A stretch of 20,000 nucleotides of DNA from an uncultured Methanosarcinales archaeon. GTDB taxonomy: Archaea; Nanobdellota; Nanobdellia; Woesearchaeales; BS150m-G63. Under the pieces are notes generated by a model that made no database searches, was not told the origin of the DNA, and was given only the letters and a program-made list of their open reading frames with translations. This document shows positions 10,868 through 20,000 of the stretch, piece after piece. The position numbers and the translations under genes were made by a program. How positions within the stretch are numbered: the first letter of the stretch is position 1; each line of letters begins with the position of its first letter. Where the stretch lies: contig CAZVVW010000004.1 in NCBI GenBank assembly GCA_964630685.1, positions 53,454-73,453 of the forward strand, given 5' to 3'.

Positions 10868-11806
10868 TTATTCTAATAATTCTACACTATCTATTCTTCC
10901 ATCTCCATCAAGATCAAATCCTTGAACAGCTACGGCAAAGGTTTTTTGGTCAGAGAATCTTTGAGTGATTAGTTTGTGGTGTCTTGTTAATGCAAGTACA
11001 GCTGCTTTTGTGCCAAGATACCTTATTCCTGCTAAAACTAATATCTTGTTTTCTGGGTTATAAGGGTTTGGAATTCTTGCTATGAATCCACAAGATTCAT
11101 CTGTGTATTGTTTTCTTGTTTTTTCTGAAATAATTCCATAAGGTTTTTTGTCTGAGAATTTTATTGGGAGCATATCATTTACTTTTGAAACAATAAGGTT
11201 TGTTATAGGCCCTCCGACAAGAATTAAATTATTTTTCTTTTTTGTAGCAATATCTACATCTAAAACCACGCTAAATTTTTTGGGAATTGAGCTATAGTGC
11301 CCAAGAAATAATGCTAAATCAATTGCATAATGTCCATCTCTCGCTCTTGCTTTTTGTGGGCCATGAGGATCTGGACTACCCACCACTATATTGCAATTGA
11401 GTTTGTTATTTTGTATGAATGGTTTGAGAAATTCTTTTAGTTCTTTATCTTTTTCTTCATGAATTAATTTGTCCATATCTTTCCAATTTTGGCTTAGGGA
11501 GATGACAAAATTCATCTCTTTTGGTTTGTATTTTTTTGCTACTGTCCCCCTTATTTCTTTTTTTTCAACTAGTTCGAGAATTCCCGAATTGAGAAGTTGT
11601 TTTATATGGTAGTATACTTTTTGTTCATGTAGTTTTAGTTTTTTAGCTAATTCTGCAGGATACATGGGTTTTTTCGCTAAAGTTTCTAGTATATTGATTC
11701 TTATTGGGTGGTCTATTAAACGCATTGCTGAAGGATTGTGAAATATGAAAGCAGAATCATATACTAATTGATTTTCTTTTTCTCTTATTAGATAATTTTT
11801 AGGCAT
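10868..11806 (-). CDS. ArsR-like winged-helix transcription regulator with a C-terminal alpha/beta domain
   Basis: HPIRINILETLAKKPMYPAELAKKL...QKVYYHIKQL..SG (wHTH). C-domain has IVVGSPDPHGP, NLILVGGPITN, AG...GTKAA and a terminal DLDGDGRID. Confidence 0.8.
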   Translation of the reverse strand: MPKNYLIREKENQLVYDSAFIFHNPSAMRLIDHPIRINILETLAKKPMYPAELAKKLKLHEQKVYYHIKQLLNSGILELVEKKEIRGTVAKKYKPKEMNFVISLSQNWKDMDKLIHEEKDKELKEFLKPFIQNNKLNCNIVVGSPDPHGPQKARARDGHYAIDLALFLGHYSSIPKKFSVVLDVDIATKKKNNLILVGGPITNLIVSKVNDMLPIKFSDKKPYGIISEKTRKQYTDESCGFIARIPNPYNPENKILVLAGIRYLGTKAAVLALTRHHKLITQRFSDQKTFAVAVQGFDLDGDGRIDSVELLE

Positions 11807-12046
11807 TTTTTTAGGTGAGTTTTTTTTGTTTATAAATTTTACTTTTTATTATAACTTTTTTTATAATATTCTTATAATTTTATATAAAGGTATTTTATTT
11901 TAAGTGGTTGTTTAGTGATGGTTTTTTGTTTAGGGGTTTCTTTGCCCTTCTTTGGTTAGATTGGTGGTTTTTTTGGGTTTGTTGGGGTTGGGGGGTCTGT
12001 TAGTGTTTGTTTTTATTTTTTTATTATAATTTAATTCTTAATTAAT

Positions 12047-12055
12047 TATTTAAAT
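12047..12055 (+). promoter_or_regulatory. Candidate TATA box of the amino-sugar operon (probably leaderless transcript)
   Basis: TATTTAAAT about 22-30 nt upstream of ATG 12077, with no SD in between. Confidence 0.45.
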
Positions 12056-12076
12056 GGCTGAATTTTAAATAAGATT

Positions 12077-12775
12077 ATGGCAACTAAAATTGTGATAATG
12101 GCTGCAGGTAAGGGCACAAGAATGATGCCTTTAACGCAGTATGTTCCGAAGACTTTAATTAACGTAGGCGGAAAACCTTTCTTGTATTATGTTATGAAGA
12201 ATGTGTTGAAAGCAGGGTATACAGAGATAGGCATTGTTGTAGGTTATAAAAAAGATAAGATTCAAGAATTTCTTAAAGATTTTGGGTTTAAAGCAAAACT
12301 CATGGAGCAAAAGAAAAGACTTGGTACTGGGCACGCACTTAAACAAATTAAAGGGTTTATAGACGGAGAAGATTTTGTAGTGATTGGTGGAGATAATCTA
12401 TGGTCCACTAATGATTTGAAAGCTATGCGCGGAAAGAGTAAATTTTGTTATATTGCTGGCATGGAACACCCAAGTCCTGAAAAATACGGGGTGCTTCTTG
12501 AAGAAGAAGGTATGTTGAAAAAGATTGTTGAAAAACCAAAGAGTTTTGTTGGTAACTTGATTAATGTAGGGTTGTATAAATTTACTAATGATATTTTTGG
12601 GGCACTTGACAATATTAAGAAATCTGAAAGGGGAGAATATGAATTGACAGACGCAATTTCTTTATTGGCTTCTCAAGGAAAAGTAAAAGTGATGGAGCTT
12701 AAAGATTATTGGTTGGATTTAGGTTGTTTGGATGACATACCCTTGATTGAACAATTCTTGACTAAAAAGATATAG
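12077..12775 (+). CDS. Sugar-phosphate nucleotidyltransferase (GlmU N-domain/RmlA-like), lacking the acetyltransferase domain
   Basis: MAAGKGTRMMPLT...PKTL, LGTGHA, GDN, YGV, IVEKP, SERGEYELTDAI, WLDLG. Ends at 232 aa with no hexapeptide repeats. Confidence 0.9.
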   Translation: MATKIVIMAAGKGTRMMPLTQYVPKTLINVGGKPFLYYVMKNVLKAGYTEIGIVVGYKKDKIQEFLKDFGFKAKLMEQKKRLGTGHALKQIKGFIDGEDFVVIGGDNLWSTNDLKAMRGKSKFCYIAGMEHPSPEKYGVLLEEEGMLKKIVEKPKSFVGNLINVGLYKFTNDIFGALDNIKKSERGEYELTDAISLLASQGKVKVMELKDYWLDLGCLDDIPLIEQFLTKKI

Positions 12776-12779
12776 GAAA

Positions 12780-12860
12780 ATGAGTGGAATTTTTGGTTAC
12801 AAAGGCAAAAAGACTAGGTCTTTAAGCCGTTTAAGAGATTTTGTTGAGGAGATGATTTAA
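12780..12860 (+). CDS. 26-aa micro-ORF resembling the GlmS N-terminus (MSGIFGYKGKKTRSLSRLRDFVEEMI); functional peptide or gene remnant
   Basis: Manual translation. Starts 4 nt after the upstream TAG and its TAA ends 1 nt before the glmS ATG. 7 of the first 9 residues are identical to GlmS (MCGIFGYNG). Confidence 0.55.
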   Translation: MSGIFGYKGKKTRSLSRLRDFVEEMI

Positions 12861-12861
12861 T

Positions 12862-14658
12862 ATGTGTGGGATTTTTGGATATAACGGGACACAGAACTCT
12901 TTTTCTATAGTATTTAATGGACTTAAAGATCTTGAATACAGGGGTTATGACTCTTGGGGTGTTGCTTCTTTGATTGATGGAAATATTAATGTAATTAAAA
13001 AAACCGGAAGGATAGGTGAAGATTTTGGTGGAAAGGAGATTAAAAGTTGTGTTTCTATTGGCCATACTCGTTGGAGTACTCATGGTAAACCTTCTGATAA
13101 AAATGCACATCCACATCTTAGTTGTGATGGAAAGATAGCTGTTGTTCATAATGGGATTATTGAGAATCATGATAAAATTAGGGAAAGATTGAAAGGACAC
13201 AAATTCAAATCTGAGACAGATACAGAAGTGATTGCTCACTTAATAGAAGAATATATGAAGAAGTATGATTATAAAGAAGCGATTGTTAAAGCGCTTGGAG
13301 AATTAGAAGGAAGTTTTGCTTTAATGATATTGAATTCTGAAAGGGAAGATATTATTGCTGTAAGGAGGGGATCTCCATTAGTTATAGGGATTAAAGGGGA
13401 AGAGTTTTTTTTATCTTCTGATCTTTTGGCTTTGTTGAGACACACAAAAGAGATTGTTTTTGTGGAAGACGATGAAATGGTGATTTTTAATTCTGGTTTT
13501 AAAATGATTAATTTTGTTAGTGGCGAGATAGTGAATAGAAATCCAGAAGTCATGGATATTGATTTTAGTGAATCTGATAAAGGAGATTTTAGTCACTTTA
13601 TGCTTAAAGAGATATATGAACAGCCAAAAGCGATTGAAAAAACTATTTCTGGAGATGGTGGCGAAGGGGTTGTATTTCAGATTCCTGATGAAGTGTTTTC
13701 TAAATTGAATAGGGTTGTGATTGTTGCTTGTGGAACTAGTTGGCATGCAGGATTGGTTGGAGAATATTGGATAGAAAGGTTTGCTGGAATACCAGTTGAA
13801 GTAGAATATGCGTCTGAATTTAGGTACAGAAAACCAATTATTGATGAAAATGTTTTAATTATTGCTATAAGTCAAAGTGGAGAGACTGCTGATACACTCG
13901 CTGCTGTAAAAGAGGCTAAAAGTGGGGGTGCGTTTATTTTTTCAATTTGTAATGTTTTTGGAAGCACACTGACTCGACTTTCTGATTTAGTTGTTTATAC
14001 TCGGGCTGGTGCAGAAATAGGGGTAGCTTCTACTAAGGCTTTTACAACTCAATTGAGTGTACTTTATTTGCTTTCTTTGTTTTTTGGGCATAAAAAAGGG
14101 GATTTAGATGATGAGGAAGTGGAAAGGAGAATTGGGTTTTTGAAAGGGGTGCCTAAACAGATAGAAGATATTCTGAATAACGAAAAAAAGGTTAGAGAGA
14201 TTGCTGAAAATTATTATCTTGATAAAAATGCACTTTATTTAGGTAGGGGTTTGAATTTTCCAATTGCCTTGGAAGGTGCGCTGAAATTGAAAGAGGTTTC
14301 TTATATTCATGCTGAAGGATATCCTGCTGCAGAAATGAAGCATGGGCCTATTGCTTTGATTGATAAAGATATGCCTGTTGTGTTTATTGCTGCAAAAGAT
14401 AAAACTTATGAGAAAGTTATGGCAAATATTGAAGAAGTCAAATCAAGAAAAGGGAAGGTGATTGCTTTGGCTAGTGAAGGTGATTCTGTTGTTGCTGGAA
14501 AAGTAGATCATGTGTTATATATCCCTGAAGCAGATCATTTTATACTTCCTTTTTTGACTGTGATTCCTTTACAATTACTCGCTTATTATATTGCTGATTT
14601 AAGGGGGTGTGAAATCGATAAACCCCGTAATCTTGCGAAGAGTGTTACTGTTGAATAA
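12862..14658 (+). CDS. glmS: Glutamine-fructose-6-phosphate aminotransferase (isomerizing)
   Basis: MCGI, LEYRGYDS, GHTRW.THG, HNGIIEN, SETDTEV, ACGTSWHA, SQSGETADT, EGALKLKE, C-terminal PRNLAKSVTVE. SD-like GAGGAG at 12846-12851. Confidence 0.99.
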   Translation: MCGIFGYNGTQNSFSIVFNGLKDLEYRGYDSWGVASLIDGNINVIKKTGRIGEDFGGKEIKSCVSIGHTRWSTHGKPSDKNAHPHLSCDGKIAVVHNGIIENHDKIRERLKGHKFKSETDTEVIAHLIEEYMKKYDYKEAIVKALGELEGSFALMILNSEREDIIAVRRGSPLVIGIKGEEFFLSSDLLALLRHTKEIVFVEDDEMVIFNSGFKMINFVSGEIVNRNPEVMDIDFSESDKGDFSHFMLKEIYEQPKAIEKTISGDGGEGVVFQIPDEVFSKLNRVVIVACGTSWHAGLVGEYWIERFAGIPVEVEYASEFRYRKPIIDENVLIIAISQSGETADTLAAVKEAKSGGAFIFSICNVFGSTLTRLSDLVVYTRAGAEIGVASTKAFTTQLSVLYLLSLFFGHKKGDLDDEEVERRIGFLKGVPKQIEDILNNEKKVREIAENYYLDKNALYLGRGLNFPIALEGALKLKEVSYIHAEGYPAAEMKHGPIALIDKDMPVVFIAAKDKTYEKVMANIEEVKSRKGKVIALASEGDSVVAGKVDHVLYIPEADHFILPFLTVIPLQLLAYYIADLRGCEIDKPRNLAKSVTVE

Positions 14659-14659
14659 A

Positions 14660-15133
14660 ATGGAATTTAGAAAAGCTAACGAATTAGATAAAGAAATGAT
14701 TGGAGAAGTTTTGAGACAGTGTTATAATATTGATTCTGTTGAAGAGGGTGTTGGGGTTTTTATGGAAGAGGTTAGTAAAGGATATAATTTTATTGTTGCT
14801 GAAGAAGCAGGAAAGATAGTTGGTTTGACTAGCTGGACTGTACATGGTTTAGTGAAACATGGATTAGCTGAATTAGATAGGATTGCTGTGTTGTTTGAAT
14901 TTAGACAAAAAGGAGCTGGAAGAGGATTATTTAATTCTTTGATTGAAAATGCTAAAGAATTTTATTCTGTTGAAGGGGGGATGCTTCGGAAAGTGTATTT
15001 GATGACTCATGCAGATAATTTTAATGCTCAAGAATTTTATAATAAATTAGGGTTGAAAAGTGAGGCTAAATTAAAGGACCATTTTTATGATGGCAAAGAT
15101 GAATTAGTTATGTCAATATTTGTGGAGGATTGA
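14660..15133 (+). CDS. GNAT family N-acetyltransferase
   Basis: ELDRIAV...RQKGAGRGL (acetyl-CoA loop) and N..AQEFY.KLG. ATG at 14660, 1 nt after the glmS TAA, preferred over the track's 14609. Confidence 0.9.
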   Translation: MEFRKANELDKEMIGEVLRQCYNIDSVEEGVGVFMEEVSKGYNFIVAEEAGKIVGLTSWTVHGLVKHGLAELDRIAVLFEFRQKGAGRGLFNSLIENAKEFYSVEGGMLRKVYLMTHADNFNAQEFYNKLGLKSEAKLKDHFYDGKDELVMSIFVED

Positions 15134-15138
15134 TTATT

Positions 15139-16812
15139 ATGAAAATTAAGGCGGTTATTTTTGATTTGGATGATACATTGTTTGATTGTAGTGGAATTCT
15201 GGCAGAATCTGCTAGAAAGCGGGCTGCTAAAGCAATGGTTAAAGCTGGTTTGAAATGTAAGTGGGAAAAAGCATATAAGAAGATTAACGAGTTTAAGCGA
15301 AAAAAAGGACCTAAGACAGATGCTTTTCAAAAAGTTGTGGATAAATTCGGACCTAAAGATTATTCTATTGTAAAAGAAGCTATTAAATCATATAATAGTG
15401 AAGAAGGGATTGAAGGGATTGAGTTGTTTCCAGGGGTGAAAGAGACTCTTGCTGAATTGAGAGAAGATTATAAATTGATTTTGGTGACTAGTGGGACAAG
15501 GGTGCGTCAACAGAAAAAAATAGATATGCTTGGGCTGAACCATGATTTTGATTTAATAATTATTGATGAATTGGAAGAACAATTATCAAAAGAAGATAGG
15601 TTTTTAGCTGTTTTAAAGAATTTTAAATTAGTTCCTGAAGAGGTGCTTGTGGTTGGAGATAGAATATTCTCTGAAATTAAAATAGGAAATATTTTGGGAA
15701 TGACGACTGTGCAGATGTTGCATGGTGTTTATAGTGGATTAGTTCCTAAAAGAGGGGTAGAGGCTCCTGATTTTAGGATTACTAAGATTGCTGAATTAAT
15801 TAGAATTTTGGAAGAATTAGAAAATCATAAAGAGTTGAAGGTGGTTGTGATTGGTGGGGGAACTGGATTGCCTTCAATGCTGAAAGGGTTGAAGAAATAT
15901 ACTCGTGAATTGACTGCTGTTGTGGGGGTTACAGATTCTGGTAGAAGTTCTGGAATGCTTAGAAAAGATTTTGATATGGCTCCGCCTGGAGATATAAGAA
16001 ATTGTTTGGTTGCTTTGTCTGATGCTGAAAAACTGATGGGAGATTTATTTCAACACAGATTTATGAATGGTAGTTTAGAAGGGCATTCTTTTGGTAATTT
16101 GTTGATTACTGCGCTTACTCAGACCACTGGCAGTTATGAGAGAGCAATACATGAGGTTGGAGGAATTTTAAAGATAAAAGGTAGGGTGTTGCCTAGCTCT
16201 CACGAAAATGTACATATTTGTGCTGAATTTGAAGATGGAAATGTGATTAAAGAAGAAGATAATATTATTGATAGGCATAATCCTGATGTGCATTTGCGTC
16301 CTAGAATTAAAAAAGTGTTTCTGAGCAAAAAAGTCAAAGTTTGCGGTAGTGCTGTGAATGCTATTATGGATGCAGATATTGTGGTGATTGGTCCTGGAAG
16401 TTTGTTTACTAGTGTGATTACTAATTTACTTGTTAAAGGGATTCGTGATGCTGTTGTTAAGAGTAAAGCTAAGAAAGTTTATGTGTGTAATATAATGGCT
16501 CAACCTTCACAAACTTATGGATTTACATCATCTGAACATGTGGGGGAGATTGAGAAGTATTTAGGGAAAGGGGTTTTAGATTATATTATTTTGAATAATG
16601 AATTGCCCCCCAAGAAATTGTTGAGATTATATGAAAAAGATCATTCTCCTATGGTTGTGGTGGATAGGGTTGGATTGAAGAAATTCAAGGCTAAAAAGAT
16701 AGAGGCAAATATTGTTGAAGATGTTAAGGAGATAAAGGTTTTGTGGAACAAAAAGAATTTACTCAGGCATGATTCTGATAAGATTGCTAAGATAATTGTT
16801 GGGTTGGAATAG
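15139..16812 (+). CDS. yvcK: Fusion of a HAD-superfamily hydrolase (N-terminal about 230 aa) and a YvcK/GlmR (CofD/UPF0052 family) domain
   Basis: HAD motifs FDLDDT, LVTSG, K, VGDRIFSE..G...G. From about 15832: VVIGGGTG, DSGRSSG.LR, PPGDIRNCL, GHSFGNL, IGPGSLFTS, RHD. Single uninterrupted frame. SD GGAGG at 15124-15128 supports ATG 15139. Confidence 0.9.
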   Translation: MKIKAVIFDLDDTLFDCSGILAESARKRAAKAMVKAGLKCKWEKAYKKINEFKRKKGPKTDAFQKVVDKFGPKDYSIVKEAIKSYNSEEGIEGIELFPGVKETLAELREDYKLILVTSGTRVRQQKKIDMLGLNHDFDLIIIDELEEQLSKEDRFLAVLKNFKLVPEEVLVVGDRIFSEIKIGNILGMTTVQMLHGVYSGLVPKRGVEAPDFRITKIAELIRILEELENHKELKVVVIGGGTGLPSMLKGLKKYTRELTAVVGVTDSGRSSGMLRKDFDMAPPGDIRNCLVALSDAEKLMGDLFQHRFMNGSLEGHSFGNLLITALTQTTGSYERAIHEVGGILKIKGRVLPSSHENVHICAEFEDGNVIKEEDNIIDRHNPDVHLRPRIKKVFLSKKVKVCGSAVNAIMDADIVVIGPGSLFTSVITNLLVKGIRDAVVKSKAKKVYVCNIMAQPSQTYGFTSSEHVGEIEKYLGKGVLDYIILNNELPPKKLLRLYEKDHSPMVVVDRVGLKKFKAKKIEANIVEDVKEIKVLWNKKNLLRHDSDKIAKIIVGLE

Positions 16813-16844
16813 TTTTATATACTTGTTTTATATTTTTTCTTTTT

Positions 16845-17909
16845 ATGAAGATTGAAATGTCTGCACTGGATTTGAAGTATATGGTTGAAGAATTGCAAGT
16901 GCTAGTTGGAGGAAGGGTTGATAAAATCTATCAAATTGGTAAGAGAGAATTCTTTTTTAGGTTTCATGTGCCAAATGAGGGTAAAAAAATTCTAAAGTTG
17001 TTTTTACCTAATTTGATGTATATTACAAAAAGGTTGGGAAGAATGCCTCAAACCCCCATGGGTTATTGTGCTTTTTTGAGAAAATATCTAGATAATGCGC
17101 GTGTTCGTGAAGTTAAACAGAAAGGGTTTGAAAGAATAATTGAATTTGTTTTTGAGAAAAAGGAAAAGTTCGTGTTGCTTGTTGAGATGTTTAGTAGCGG
17201 AAACATGATCTTGTGTAAAGAGAATTATACTATGTTGTCTCCTTTGGAAGGACAAGACTGGAGATGTAGGAGTATTAGAAAAGGGTTGAAATATGAATTT
17301 CCTCCTGAAAGGGAAGATATTTTTAAGTTGAACCTTGTGCGATTTAAAGAGATAATTGCTGGAAGTGAAAGAGATAATATTGTAAAGACATTAGCTGTTG
17401 ATTTTGGGCTTGGAGGAGTTTATGCTGAAGAGGTTTGTTTTGAGGTTATTGAGAAGGGGAAAAAAGAAGTCGGTGATAGTGAGATTAAGAAGTTGTTTAA
17501 ATCTTTAGATGGATTGCTTAGTCGTAAATTAAAGCCTGTGGTGTATAAAGGTCGTAGAGCGTTTCCTTTTGAATTGAAAAGTTTTGAAGGAGACTTTAAG
17601 GAATTTGAGAGTTTTAGTGGGGCTTTGGATTATGTTAATTTTGAGAAAAAAGTTGCCTTTAAGGATAAAGTTGATGTTATTATAGAAAAACAAGAGCAGA
17701 ATTTAGGGGTGCTTGAGAAAGAAATTGAAGAGAATGGAAAGATAGGTGATTTGATTTATAATAATTATGTTTTGGTTGCTGATGTGTTGAAACAGATTGA
17801 TTCTGCTAGAAAGGAATTAGGATGGAAAGAAGTGAAAGAGAAACTGAAAGGGCACAAAGTTGTTAAAGAGATAGATGAAGCTGAAGGGAAGGTTGTTATT
17901 GACATATGA
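16845..17909 (+). CDS. rqcH: NFACT/Rqc2 (RqcH) homologue, N-terminal half only (NFACT-N, HhH, first coiled coil)
   Basis: MSALDL....ELQ.L.G.RVDKIYQ, LRKYL, Q.GFERI, VEMFSSGNMIL, Y.FPP, GLGGVYAEEVC. Ends at 354 aa with no NFACT-R domain. TATA-like TTTTATATA about 25-30 nt upstream. Confidence 0.85.
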   Translation: MKIEMSALDLKYMVEELQVLVGGRVDKIYQIGKREFFFRFHVPNEGKKILKLFLPNLMYITKRLGRMPQTPMGYCAFLRKYLDNARVREVKQKGFERIIEFVFEKKEKFVLLVEMFSSGNMILCKENYTMLSPLEGQDWRCRSIRKGLKYEFPPEREDIFKLNLVRFKEIIAGSERDNIVKTLAVDFGLGGVYAEEVCFEVIEKGKKEVGDSEIKKLFKSLDGLLSRKLKPVVYKGRRAFPFELKSFEGDFKEFESFSGALDYVNFEKKVAFKDKVDVIIEKQEQNLGVLEKEIEENGKIGDLIYNNYVLVADVLKQIDSARKELGWKEVKEKLKGHKVVKEIDEAEGKVVIDI

Positions 17910-17947
17910 TTCAAAGTAAGACAAAGATTTATAGAATAAATTTAAAG

Positions 17948-17955
17948 AAAAAAAA
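17948..17955 (-). terminator. T8 terminator after the 5S rRNA
   Basis: A8 on the plus strand equals T8 on the minus strand, immediately 3' of the 5S helix I. Confidence 0.65.
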
Positions 17956-17956
17956 G

Positions 17957-18068
17957 TGGACAGCTTTCTGGGTTTCCCATACAAAGTATAGTACACCCCA
18001 AAACGTGTGCTTGCTTAACTTCTGAGATCGAGACGGGATCAGGTGAACCAAGCAGCTATGACCGTCCA
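17957..18068 (-). rRNA. rrf: 5S ribosomal RNA (stand-alone)
   Basis: Minus strand reads TGGACGGTCATAGC...CACCTGATCCCGTCTCGATCTCAGAAGTTAAGC...GTGTACT...GGGAAA...GCTGTCCA: archaeal 5S signature (GGYCAUAGC, loop C, GAAGUUAAGC, loop E) with complementary ends. Ends accurate to about 3 nt. Confidence 0.95.
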
Positions 18069-18088
18069 TAGAGAAGGATTTTTGATGG

Positions 18089-18098
18089 ATTTATAAAT
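18089..18098 (-). promoter_or_regulatory. TATA box of the 5S rRNA gene
   Basis: ATTTATAAAT about 21-30 nt upstream of the 5S 5' end on the minus strand. Confidence 0.65.
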
Positions 18099-18177
18099 CT
18101 TACTGTTTTTTGTGTTTGTAGAGGGTAAAGTTTTTAAATCTGGGTAGTTTATGATGTGAAGTTGAGGGGGTAAAACA

Positions 18178-18909
18178 ATGAAAGTACTTATTTTAGCAGC
18201 AGGGTATGCAACTCGTCTTTATCCATTGACATTGGATACTCCTAAACCTTTATTGCCTATAGGTGATAAGGTGATGGTAGAACATATTCTTGATAGAATT
18301 AATTCTATAGATACAGTTATAGATGGGGTTTATATTGTGACAAATGAGAAATTCTATGGGCATTTTATAGAATGGGCAGAGAAGAGTGTTTTTGATGTTA
18401 AGATTATTAATGATGGTACTAAGAGTAATGATGATAGATTAGGGGCTATAGGGGATATTGATTTTGTGATTAAAGAGGAGAAAATAGGGGATGATTTGAT
18501 GGTGATTGCAGGGGACAATCTTTTTGAATTTGATTTGAAAGCATTTTATGATTATTTTTGGGAAAAGAGTAAAAGTGTTGTAGCAATATATGATTTGAAA
18601 GAGAAAGAATTATTAGCCAATAAATTCGGAGTTGTTGAGTTAAATGAAGAAGATAGGATAATTGGGTTTGAAGAAAAACCTGCTGAACCAAAGACTAGTT
18701 TGACCGCTACTGCGTGTTATATATTTAGTAAAGATGATGTTGCTCTGTTGGAAAAGTGTATTGCTGAAAATGAAAGTCCTGATAATCTTGGAGATTTTAT
18801 AAAGTGGTTATCAGAAAAAGAAGAAGTATATGGATTTGTGTTTAAAGAAGGGTGGTATGATATCGGAAGCAAAGAAGATTTGGAGAAGGTTAGAGGGTTG
18901 ATGAAATGA
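18178..18909 (+). CDS. Sugar-phosphate nucleotidyltransferase (NTP_transferase family)
   Basis: LAAGYATRLYPLT..PKPLL, DRLGAIGD, AGDNLF, FEEKP, WYDIGS. SD-like GAGGGGG upstream. Confidence 0.9.
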   Translation: MKVLILAAGYATRLYPLTLDTPKPLLPIGDKVMVEHILDRINSIDTVIDGVYIVTNEKFYGHFIEWAEKSVFDVKIINDGTKSNDDRLGAIGDIDFVIKEEKIGDDLMVIAGDNLFEFDLKAFYDYFWEKSKSVVAIYDLKEKELLANKFGVVELNEEDRIIGFEEKPAEPKTSLTATACYIFSKDDVALLEKCIAENESPDNLGDFIKWLSEKEEVYGFVFKEGWYDIGSKEDLEKVRGLMK

Positions 18910-20000
18910 AGATTTTATTTGTTTTGGAAAATTATTTACCCCATATAGGGGGGGTAGAAATAGTTTTTAAGAATTTATGTGAAGGTTTAGTTAAATTAGG
19001 CCATGATATTTCTATTGTTACTCATAGACTTAAAAATACTAAAAAATTTGAAATGATTGAGGGGGTTAAAATCCATAGGGTAAACTGCTTTCATAGTAGG
19101 TATTGGTTTACTTTTCTTTCCATACCTTTAGTGTTTAAATTAGCTAAAAAAGCAAAACTGATTCATACTACTACATTTAATGGGGCATTTCCTTCTTGGT
19201 TTGCATCTAAAATTTTGAGAAAACCAAATATAATTACTATCCACGAAGTGTGGGTTAATAAATGGAATAAATTAACGGAAATAGGTTTTTTGAAATCTAA
19301 AATTCATGATTTTTTAGAAAAAATGATTTATTTGCTCAATTTTGATAAATTTGCATGTGTTTCTTATTCTACTCAAAAACAACTCTTAGATTTAGGGATT
19401 AATAAAAATAAAGTTGTTGTAGTATATAATGGGGTAGATTATGAACATTGGAATCCTAAGAAATATGATGGAAAAAAGGTAAGAAAACAATTGGGTTTGG
19501 AGAATAATTTTGTTTATTTATTTACAGGAAGACCAGGAATTAGTAAAGGGTTGGAGTATCTCATAAAGGCGGTTCCACAAATATCCAAAAAAATACATAA
19601 TGCTAAATTATTGGCTATATTTAGTAAAGATAAAGCATATAAAGAAAGGTATGATTATATCTTAAAATTAATAAAAGATTTAAAGATTAAAGATAAAGTA
19701 ATATTATTGAACCCAGTTCCATATAAAGAATTACCTAGTTATGTAAAAGCAGTTGATTGTGTTGTTGTACCTAGTTTAGCAGAAGGATTTGGTTTTTCTG
19801 CTGCAGAAGCTTGTGCAATGGGTAAACCAGTAGTTGCAAGCAATACCACATCACTTCCAGAAGTTGTTTCTGGAAGATATGTTTTGGTAAAAACTAGGAG
19901 TTCTAAAGGAATTGCTAAAGGTGTTAAAGACGTTTTTAATGGAAAATATTTAAAAAAGAGGGCTGTTAAATTTGGATTAAAAGAAAACATTGATAAATAT
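18906..20000 (+). CDS. Glycosyltransferase family 4 (GT-B), runs off the window end
   Basis: Not in the ORF track because there is no stop in the window. ATG overlaps the upstream TGA (ATGA). Translation MKILFVLENYLPHIGGVE...VYNGVD...GRPGISKG...PSLAEGFGFSAAEACAMGKPVVAS...SLPEVV includes the EX7E motif. Confidence 0.93.
   Translation, partial: MKILFVLENYLPHIGGVEIVFKNLCEGLVKLGHDISIVTHRLKNTKKFEMIEGVKIHRVNCFHSRYWFTFLSIPLVFKLAKKAKLIHTTTFNGAFPSWFASKILRKPNIITIHEVWVNKWNKLTEIGFLKSKIHDFLEKMIYLLNFDKFACVSYSTQKQLLDLGINKNKVVVVYNGVDYEHWNPKKYDGKKVRKQLGLENNFVYLFTGRPGISKGLEYLIKAVPQISKKIHNAKLLAIFSKDKAYKERYDYILKLIKDLKIKDKVILLNPVPYKELPSYVKAVDCVVVPSLAEGFGFSAAEACAMGKPVVASNTTSLPEVVSGRYVLVKTRSSKGIAKGVKDVFNGKYLKKRAVKFGLKENIDKY

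Follow-up and report, generated by a model that had tools for sequence, protein, structure and literature searches.

UDP-N-acetylglucosamine (UDP-GlcNAc) serves universally as the donor for the cell envelope and for protein glycosylation, and the prokaryotic route to it through GlmS, GlmM and GlmU is regarded as fixed and as a drug target. How this donor could be made from an operon that carries glmS without glmM, together with a GlmU-like nucleotidyltransferase without the acetyltransferase domain, is the question raised by a stretch of 20,000 nucleotides (nt), here called the window, from an uncultured archaeon of the order Woesearchaeales (GenBank assembly GCA_964630685.1, contig CAZVVW010000004.1, positions 53,454 to 73,453 of the forward strand). 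The open reading frames (ORFs) concerned, with sizes in amino acids (aa), are as follows.

12077-12775, + strand: NTP1, a nucleotidyltransferase of 232 aa
12780-12860, + strand: uORF, a micro-ORF of 26 codons, translation MSGIFGYKGKKTRSLSRLRDFVEEMI followed by a stop
12862-14658, + strand: glmS, 598 aa
14660-15133, + strand: GNAT, 157 aa counted from ATG
15139-16812, + strand: HAD::YvcK, 557 aa counted from ATG
15139-15822, + strand: HAD-IA domain of HAD::YvcK, residues 1 to about 228
15823-16812, + strand: YvcK/GlmR (CofD-related) domain of HAD::YvcK, residues about 229-557

The gaps between consecutive members are 4, 1, 1 and 5 nt. This layout had been described in an earlier reading made from the letters of the window (the sequence-only reading), and its coordinates and gaps were all confirmed, including a GNAT that starts 1 nt after glmS. 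The absence of glmM from the unit, stated in the same reading, also stands, and no phosphohexomutase gene was found in the window. Comparisons extended to the window's own assembly (G000; 936,502 bp in 35 contigs, 96.56% complete) and to a sample of 401 genomes of the same order from 258 genera, whose members are labelled G001 and so on and their loci L0xx or L1xx; three of the 31 GNAT loci described below, the absence of the GNAT in G002 and small parts of the order-wide counts derive from unpublished records. The five-part order is repeated in G001, the second species of the genus, with proteins 87-93% identical, and pairing of glmS with the GNAT is seen in many families of the order; together these argue that the layout is more than chance. 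The suggestion that the four-gene order is a general trait of DPANN archaea was not upheld, however, since the synteny of NTP1 and HAD::YvcK with glmS is confined to the genus.

The answer put forward here is, taken whole, a tentative one: the window may hold a de novo UDP-GlcNAc operon served by a GNAT acting on glucosamine 6-phosphate (GlcN-6-P), a mutase of the phosphomannomutase/phosphoglucomutase (PMM/PGM) type, NTP1 and a GlmR-like HAD::YvcK. That two canonical parts have been swapped for unrelated proteins in this operon of a Woesearchaeales-type DPANN archaeon is a possibility standing slightly short of an even balance. As a conserved variant of an essential pathway the system is real. 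In the proposed scheme, GlmS would convert fructose-6-P and glutamine to GlcN-6-P, and the GNAT, translationally coupled to glmS, would acetylate GlcN-6-P with acetyl-CoA to N-acetylglucosamine 6-phosphate (GlcNAc-6-P), which is the eukaryotic order of steps. Conversion of GlcNAc-6-P to GlcNAc-1-P would fall to the lone PMM/PGM-type mutase encoded at another locus; PGM-type enzymes are known to moonlight in the role of amino-sugar phosphate mutase. NTP1 would then uridylylate GlcNAc-1-P. The YvcK domain would bind UDP-GlcNAc and, by analogy with bacterial GlmR, may add uridylyltransferase activity or stimulate flux, and the fused HAD domain would serve as a phosphatase on a sugar phosphate of the pathway or on pyrophosphate.

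Loss of the GlmU acetyltransferase domain

By its sequence, GlmS is a glutamine--fructose-6-phosphate aminotransferase. It scores above the cut-offs of both NF001484 (798.7 bits) and TIGR01135 (788.4 bits over positions 1-607, cut-off 418.05), contains one GATase and two SIS domains in Pfam, and begins with MCGIFGY, in which the catalytic Cys is present as in the family. Identity to the window GlmS is 50-57% for GlmS proteins linked to a GNAT and 35-44% for those of canonical clusters. The GlmS of G022 (L055:5926-7857, - strand) is 643 aa long; compared with that of the window, it has about 60 extra residues inserted after residue 53.

NTP1 has NTP_transferase (PF00483, 135.6 bits) as its sole Pfam domain. 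The best of its 46 NCBIfam matches is Arch_glmU (TIGR03992; 215.1 bits, cut-off 292.1), followed by rmlA_long (177.9 bits). The Arch_glmU match covers model positions 2-215 of 393, which is the N-terminal sugar-1-P nucleotidylyltransferase part of archaeal GlmU, and leaves the C-terminal left-handed beta-helix (LbH) part uncovered. The protein itself ends at residue 232, and thus lacks the acetyltransferase domain, as first noticed from the sequence. A full-length glmU elsewhere, for which the sequence-only reading had advised a search, is not present in the assembly: no GlmU-model match in the genome passes position 220 of 393, and no Hexapep match occurs anywhere in it at E<=1. In canonical relatives a glmS-glmM-glmU cluster occupies the same neighbourhood, adjoining a gene for a helix-turn-helix (HTH)/S-layer-like protein and rqcH; in G004, where the order is glmM-glmU-glmS-rqcH, the full-length glmU lies in the slot that NTP1 holds in the window. 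From its best-matching model and its genomic position, NTP1 is presumed to be a GlcNAc-1-P uridylyltransferase of the GlmU N-domain type. Short NTP proteins 45-55% identical to NTP1 are encoded directly after HAD::YvcK in G029 and G084.

A glmS-linked GNAT that nearly excludes complete GlmU

Domain models say little of what the GNAT does. It matches PF00583 at 47 bits and otherwise generic Pfam models; its best NCBIfam model is RimI (43.2 bits, cut-off 86.4), and none of the NCBIfam models is matched above cut-off. Its role is read from synteny and from phyletic complementarity with complete GlmU. Orthologues (E<=2e-30, 38-87% identity) are present in 63 of the 401 genomes and 47 of the 258 genera. 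All 31 loci examined, the window included, place the GNAT inside a glmS cluster, so that the synteny which the sequence-only reading had proposed to check in relatives holds across many families. In 28 of these loci glmS lies directly upstream, often with a 4-nt overlap, and in the remaining three a single ORF of 488-490 aa stands between glmS and the GNAT. This ORF (G347, L060:3474-4946; G259, L061:3572-5038; G267, L062:3526-4998; all + strand) has no Pfam family, just a sub-threshold MazE/AbrB-like stretch, and is an unassigned member of the cassette.

Complete GlmU was defined as a match to the archaeal GlmU model at E<=1e-72 that reaches the end of the LbH domain. The model is matched in 149 genomes, 136 with a complete LbH end and 13 with matches that end at positions 324-351. 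GNAT and complete GlmU occur together in one genome (G125), against 21.4 expected from 63 and 136 of 401, while seven of the 13 short-LbH genomes have the GNAT. In G210 the GNAT forms the C-terminal part of a 735-aa HAD::YvcK::GNAT fusion adjoining a GlmU-like NTP. With no Hexapep domain in the genome, one overlap where 21.4 were expected and linkage to glmS at every locus examined, the claim that the GNAT stands in for the missing GlmU acetyltransferase has been strengthened, and the GNAT very probably supplies the acetylation lost with the LbH domain.

The family is small: among 1.84 billion cluster representatives, 36 match at E<=1e-30 and 155 at E<=1e-10. Of the best 150 representatives in a GNAT profile search, all but a few, which measure 212-349 aa, are stand-alone proteins about 156 aa long. 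Among 546 longer-protein candidates no GNAT fusion was found at E<=1e-10, a weak negative since the 735-aa fusion of G210 exists. The other GNATs of the genome, an AAC(6')/RimI-like protein of 148 aa, a RimJ/PseH-like protein of 184 aa and Elp3, were considered as amino-sugar acetyltransferases and set aside, as none of the three is linked to amino-sugar genes.

The eukaryotic enzyme GNA1 was an obvious relative to look for, and the sequence-only reading had leaned on it. The predicted structure of the GNAT (pLDDT 95.7) is a generic GNAT fold whose nearest folds by Foldseek and VIA are of the RimI/Ard1/SpeG/AAC(6') types, with nearly tied Z values (20.2 down to 17.8 for 50 entries); the 30 Foldseek rows and the 50 best VIA entries do not include GNA1. 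Nor is it among the best 60 of 62 matches of a 27-orthologue GNAT profile to all PDB sequences at E<=0.01. Homology to GNA1 is accordingly rejected on sequence, and the GNAT, if GNA1-like in function, is an independent recruit.

Mutases of GNAT-bearing genomes

The sole phosphohexomutase (PGM_PMM) of the window's genome lies at a separate locus (C6:25967-27271), directly after an RHH::nucleotidyltransferase whose best model is mannose-1-P guanylyltransferase. It matches NF007088 (PMM/PGM) best, at 492 bits, and the archaeal GlmM model at 382 bits (cut-off 439). On the bacterial glmM model TIGR01455 it reaches 202.3-202.8 bits against a cut-off of 447.55, and this is the best score in the genome, which thus holds no GlmM above cut-off; the cluster-encoded GlmM proteins of canonical relatives score 487-582 bits. 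The earlier statement that glmM is missing can therefore be refined to one PMM/PGM-type mutase elsewhere that falls below the glmM cut-off. In a tree of 49 phosphohexomutases of the order, three clades are separated, each with an SH-aLRT of 100.

PMM/PGM type: both kinds of genome, including the only copy of G000; commonest sugar-binding loop GELSGH
True GlmM: canonical clusters; commonest sugar-binding loop GEQSGH
P2: from GNAT-bearing genomes; common loops GEGSSSG and GEGSNGG; SHNEP phosphoserine loop

The P2 rows of the tree had been chosen as the second mutase of GNAT genomes, and the link between GNAT and P2 was for this reason tested separately, with a P2 protein as query. P2 orthologues (40-59% identity) were found in 61 of the 401 genomes; 50 of the 63 GNAT genomes have P2, against 9.6 expected, and conversely 50 of the 61 P2 genomes have the GNAT. 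No genome combines P2 with complete GlmU (61 and 136 genomes). The genes follow one another directly as glmS-GNAT-P2 in G100, G260 and G072, and in G131, G310 and G344 no more than 1.5 kb separates the GNAT from a downstream P2. G000 and G001 have the GNAT and neither P2 nor GlmM. Five GNAT genomes that are at least 90% complete lack P2 (G000, G047, G210, G125 and G249): three of them have YvcK with a HAD module, G125 has GlmM, and G249, with neither, has only a PGM-family match of 254 bits, perhaps a divergent P2. G062 encodes a divergent phosphohexomutase-like protein of 709 aa (L110:2921-5050, + strand) directly upstream of HAD::YvcK, with PGM_PMM domains I-III above the Pfam cut-offs and domain IV below.

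These mutases bear on the acceptor of the acetyl group. Acetylation at GlcN-6-P, in the eukaryote-like order, is plausible, and is favoured by the joint switch of mutase, the altered P2 loop and the gene order glmS-GNAT-mutase. The prokaryotic order, in which the PMM/PGM mutase would turn GlcN-6-P into GlcN-1-P, the GNAT would acetylate GlcN-1-P and NTP1 would uridylylate the product, is the less probable of the two and carries perhaps a modest chance of being right. It would suit the affinities of the mutases, for the archaeal GlmM model (cut-off 439) is the best or second-best model of both P2 (316-329 bits, below cut-off) and the PMM/PGM protein, and the nearest solved relatives of P2 are the archaeal phospho-sugar mutases 1wqa and 2f7l and not an acetylglucosamine mutase. 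In G125, moreover, the GNAT comes after the full glmU and not after glmS, and the GNAT-P2 co-occurrence would also be accounted for by a cassette-wise swap with no change of substrate. This order gives no obvious reason, however, why 50 of 63 GNAT genomes should have given up GlmM for a mutase whose loop differs, why the linked genes should run glmS-GNAT-mutase, or why the GNAT should be coupled to glmS, often by a 4-nt overlap.

HAD::YvcK and its likely activities

The last gene of the operon encodes a HAD_2 domain (residues 6-191, 75.5 bits) and a CofD/YvcK domain (residues 235-555). The latter belongs to the YvcK family by TIGR01826 (341.7 bits, cut-off 196) and PF01933 (332.2 bits), and among solved structures it is related to 2hzb and 2o2z, bacterial YvcK homologues (252 bits). 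For bacterial GlmR, UDP-GlcNAc binding, stimulation of GlmS and an accessory uridyltransferase activity have been reported (PMC7525490, PMC10128056, PMC13046274), and D38/D39 of Bacillus subtilis GlmR have been named as catalytic for the uridyltransferase activity (PMC13046274). These residues would appear to be the pair that aligns with the DD of 2hzb and 2o2z. In the window protein the pair is D-S, so that the paired catalytic aspartates reported for the GlmR uridyltransferase would not be present as such. Across 120 fused homologues the pair is DS in 95, DT in 11, DA in 10, DN in 2 and DD in none, with no pattern in two; the solved homologue 2ppv has DN there, which shows that the second Asp is not universal in the family.

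Motif I of the HAD domain is intact (DLDDT, the same in 102 of 120 homologues). The best NCBIfam model of the domain is TIGR02253 (121.7 bits, below the cut-off of 169.75), and its closest solved sequences are PH1655 (2hoq, 85.8 bits) and N-acylneuraminate-9-phosphatase (48.6 bits); phosphoglycolate phosphatases and YfnB are also resembled. The sequence-only reading had allowed the domain to be a mutase like beta-phosphoglucomutase (beta-PGM). This does not survive: the beta-PGM models TIGR01990 and TIGR02009 are matched at 21.8 bits (cut-off 189.4) and 24.6 bits (cut-off 153.35), no beta-PGM is present among the 31 PDB sequences that match the domain at E<=0.001, and the best models and solved relatives are phosphatases. 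The domain thus looks like a phosphatase rather than a beta-PGM-type mutase.

The HAD::YvcK architecture is already known, being common and automatically annotated. Of the best 120 homologues 119 have both the HAD and CofD Pfam domains (the exception, P0014, is a partial protein), and their named sources are Woesearchaeota, Diapherotrites, Aenigmatarchaeota, Nanoarchaeota and Planctomycetota/Brocadiales. Within the order, G021 encodes a 902-aa YvcK::NTP::HAD protein before glmS, and G047 and G161 carry YvcK, an NTP::short-LbH::HAD fusion, glmS and the GNAT in one operon; with the arrangements in G029/G084 and G210 described above, NTP, HAD and YvcK are seen to be fused in several permutations. 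A complex prediction of NTP1 with HAD::YvcK gave a score of 0.00 against a mark of 0.32 and is uninformative either way. Two otherwise canonical glmS/glmM/glmU clusters contain stand-alone HAD genes of 216 aa (G032, L051:3315-3965, and G024, L054:3344-3994, both - strand), so that a HAD recurs in these clusters even beside GlmM and full GlmU. G047 also has a 337-aa LAGLIDADG ORF (L107:8270-9283, - strand) between its NTP::HAD gene and glmS, a place where its sister G161 has no ORF.

Exclusion of dedicated mutases by YvcK

At E<=1e-40, YvcK is present in 84 of the 401 genomes, none of which has P2 (12.8 expected from 84 and 61 of 401). A GlmM-type match is likewise absent from all 83 YvcK genomes searched with the GlmM model. 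The threshold was E<=1e-20 for 24 of them, where the top score was 213.8 bits (cut-off 447.55), and E<=1e-90 for the other 59; in 80 control genomes with complete GlmU and no YvcK, 71 have a GlmM-type match and 65 score above cut-off. True GlmM, P2 and YvcK exclude one another three ways in the order. YvcK and complete GlmU coexist in 14 genomes, and in nine of these the two genes are no more than 1 kb apart. YvcK takes the slot of glmM in G341 (glmS-yvcK-glmU) and in G078 (glmU-glmS-yvcK), and in the window HAD::YvcK follows the GNAT in the slot taken by P2 in G100, G260 and G072. Large YvcK frames (at least 539 aa) number 17, with domain content read mostly from stop-to-stop length and by Pfam or BLAST for G000, G001, G021, G029, G062, G084 and G210; all are in genomes without complete GlmU.

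One reading of the exclusion, which we consider unlikely, is that HAD::YvcK takes care of the mutase step or circumvents it, and that UDP-GlcNAc synthesis requires no alpha-phosphohexomutase. The HAD domain might dephosphorylate GlcNAc-6-P and YvcK re-activate the anomeric position by phospho- or uridylyl-transfer, or a new kind of phosphomutase might be at work, both being low in probability. Such a bypass would fit the lack of any overlap with P2 or GlmM, the position of YvcK between or beside glmS and glmU and of HAD::YvcK in the place of P2, the YvcK and HAD module of three of the five P2-less GNAT genomes, the confinement of all large frames to genomes without complete GlmU, and the lack of D-D at the DD-equivalent pair in every one of the 118 fused homologues (of 120) that show the pattern. 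Nevertheless, 21 of the 24 YvcK genomes searched at E<=1e-20 keep at least one PGM-family match as a possible moonlighter, mostly at about 150-214 bits on the glmM model, like the PMM/PGM protein of G000. Most YvcK genes adjoining a full glmU have no HAD, and the domain content of most large frames is read from length, with seven checked. The accessible text of the GlmR papers (PMC7525490, PMC10128056, PMC13046274) reports no mutase, kinase or phosphatase-coupled activity. The exclusivity could equally mean that a weak moonlighting mutase needs a flux booster, which would echo B. subtilis genetics. A functional replacement of phosphoglucosamine mutase across the order by the YvcK/GlmR family, with or without the fused HAD, is a doubtful proposition.

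The more conservative reading, in which the lone PMM/PGM enzyme performs the mutase step and the GlmR-like module keeps flux up, has about as much for it as against it. The absence of a dedicated GlmM or P2 mutase from the lineage is our proposed reason for the retention of the HAD::YvcK module.

Two further genes could bear on the salvage or mutase step. A second, stand-alone HAD (C14:16385-17026, + strand) belongs to the beta-PGM subfamily, with 129.3 bits on TIGR02009, below cut-off, and 114.5 bits on the other beta-PGM model, and is thus far nearer to it than the HAD domain of the operon; a ROK sugar kinase (C9:17961-18842, - strand) matches the glucokinase model at 198.8 bits and the N-acetylglucosamine-kinase model at 132.7 bits, both below their cut-offs. 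A motif screen of 874 ORFs of the genome recovered a single ROK kinase, a weak APH-family protein and another HAD; GHMP-kinase and family-I pyrophosphatase motifs were not found, both being weak negatives. That the GNAT is a protein N-alpha or polyamine acetyltransferase unrelated to amino sugars, with GlcNAc obtained by ROK-kinase salvage and the adjacency to glmS incidental, would agree with RimI as its best, sub-threshold model, with its RimI/Ard1/SpeG-type neighbours in structure and sequence and with the sub-threshold kinase match, but it is very improbable in view of the glmS linkage at 31 of 31 loci in many families, the near-perfect exclusion of complete GlmU, a presence in 63 of 401 genomes that fits a housekeeping protein acetyltransferase poorly, the fusion to HAD::YvcK in G210, and a retained GlmS that would yield GlcN-6-P with no onward route.

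Points that weigh against the proposal

Several observations count against the proposed pathway. The activities of all operon enzymes are predicted, and acceptance of GlcNAc-6-P by the PMM/PGM mutase is putative; the second-best model of NTP1 is a glucose-1-P thymidylyltransferase, and the nearest solved relatives of the GNAT are polyamine and protein N-alpha-acetyltransferases, the best 60 PDB matches of its profile being of these and other GNAT kinds. G125 has GlmM, full GlmU and the GNAT together. In G002, the third species of the genus (79% complete), the GNAT was not found, and the spacing between glmS and HAD::YvcK is too small to hold one. Eleven P2 genomes show no GNAT, although in at least one of them (G006) the contig stops right after glmS. 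Co-occurrence of GNAT and P2 may in part reflect inheritance as one cassette: the GlmS proteins linked to the GNAT form a similarity group of their own, which keeps this explanation, and with it the GlcN-1-P order, alive. Kinship between genomes makes Fisher values overstate co-occurrence, and weight is placed on the counts. Of 25 YvcK genomes sampled for glmS, 16 have the gene and nine lack it, so that stimulation of GlmS is not the general or only role of YvcK in the order. Taken as a whole, the interpretation offered in the sequence-only reading keeps its central element, a GNAT in place of the lost acetyltransferase, and gives up both the homology to GNA1 and the beta-PGM-like HAD.

The upstream ORF and the surrounding genes

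The uORF is a duplicate of the start of glmS (ATG and about 24 nt), followed by a GAGGAG stretch resembling a ribosome-binding site and by TAA; translation and alignment place its stop 1 nt before the glmS ATG. Its second codon is Ser, against the catalytic Cys of glmS. In G001 an 82-nt unit upstream of glmS is present in 3.4 tandem copies with 98% matches, and none of 23 other loci checked has a copy of the glmS start ahead of glmS. We read the uORF as a tandem duplication, specific to the genus, of the region where glmS initiates, any part of it in glmS regulation being hypothetical. A known or unusually stable RNA was considered for this region and rejected: Rfam is not matched at E<=1 over 11700-13000, and the sequence does not fold better than its shuffles (z -0.32).

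Divergent from the operon, at 10868-11806 (- strand), lies the window's HTH/S-layer-like gene, an ArsR-type HTH fused to an S-layer-like outer domain. Homologues (40-94% identity) stand beside glmS/glmU/yvcK clusters in 10 of the 29 relative loci examined (L019, L023, L049, L051, L054, L057, L059, L107, L108 and L112), and the gene is a candidate for the regulator of the cluster. Downstream are an RqcH-like protein with the NFACT-N part only (16845-17909, + strand; 354 aa, with matched ORFs of 352-372 aa in relatives), a second nucleotidyltransferase (18178-18909, + strand; 243 aa) and a GT4 glycosyltransferase (18906-20000, + strand) that overlaps the latter by 4 nt; these three genes set the operon within a glycan-synthesis neighbourhood. 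Over 12001-19000 the GC skew passes from about 0 to between +0.40 and +0.53 at the start of the + strand gene run, and the AT skew shifts towards 0, with a strong purine bias of the coding strand.

Relation to known systems and significance

The proposed route resembles the eukaryotic hexosamine pathway (GFAT, GNA1, AGM1/PGM3, UAP1) in amination, N-acetylation of a 6-phosphate by a GNAT-fold enzyme, a mutase that works on the acetylated sugar and a mono-functional uridylyltransferase, in that order. It differs in its parts. The GNAT is no GNA1 homologue by sequence, and GNA1 is outside its nearest folds listed; the uridylyltransferase is a GlmU N-domain and not of the UAP1 type; and P2, the partner mutase of the GNAT, is nearest to archaeal phospho-sugar mutases and is itself lacking in G000. 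With the GlmS-GlmM-GlmU route the operon shares the product, GlmS and the fold of the N-terminal nucleotidyltransferase, but G000 has neither the LbH domain nor a GlmM-type mutase, and has the GNAT and HAD::YvcK in their places. The YvcK domain is of the same family as the bacterial GlmR (YvcK) of Bacillus and Listeria (252 bits) and shares its association with genes of UDP-GlcNAc synthesis; it is, however, fused to a HAD phosphatase and has Ser for the second Asp of the DD pair. YvcK moreover excludes GlmM in this archaeal order, whereas B. subtilis has both GlmM and YvcK/GlmR.

An Apicomplexa-specific GNA1 gene family has been described (PMC5838249), and is a possible precedent for a lineage-specific GNA1. 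A preprint on Staphylococcus aureus NagU (10.64898/2026.06.23.733835) points to bacteria whose GlmU consists of the N-terminal uridyltransferase part alone, and postulates an 'unidentified acetyltransferase' for a glucosamine-phosphate intermediate. It concerns bacteria with a UAP-like NagU, and in the text accessible the acetyltransferase is not named, whereas here the organism is an archaeon and synteny and phyletic pattern single out a GNAT candidate. The function of GlmR/YvcK is itself disputed between a GlmS activator and an accessory uridyltransferase (PMC10128056, PMC13046274). In the accessible parts of the literature searched, there was no account of a GNAT replacing the GlmU acetyltransferase in archaea or DPANN, nor of exclusivity between YvcK and GlmM. 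The new elements are the counts across the order, the clade of P2 mutases, the exclusivity of YvcK, GlmM and P2, and the origin of the uORF.

The assignment of the GNAT makes a strong case for one that is computational throughout, and this narrow family is a concrete candidate for the 'unidentified acetyltransferase' of half-GlmU organisms. Roughly a sixth of the genomes in a large DPANN order appear to rely on the GNAT, with a mutase clade of their own. The pattern of exclusion predicts a role of GlmR/YvcK tied to the mutase step. Should YvcK indeed replace the mutase, UDP-GlcNAc could be reached from hexosamine-6-phosphate, or from salvaged GlcNAc or GlcN, independently of a mutase, and the long-debated GlmR family would gain a primary catalytic role between the GlmS and GlmU steps.

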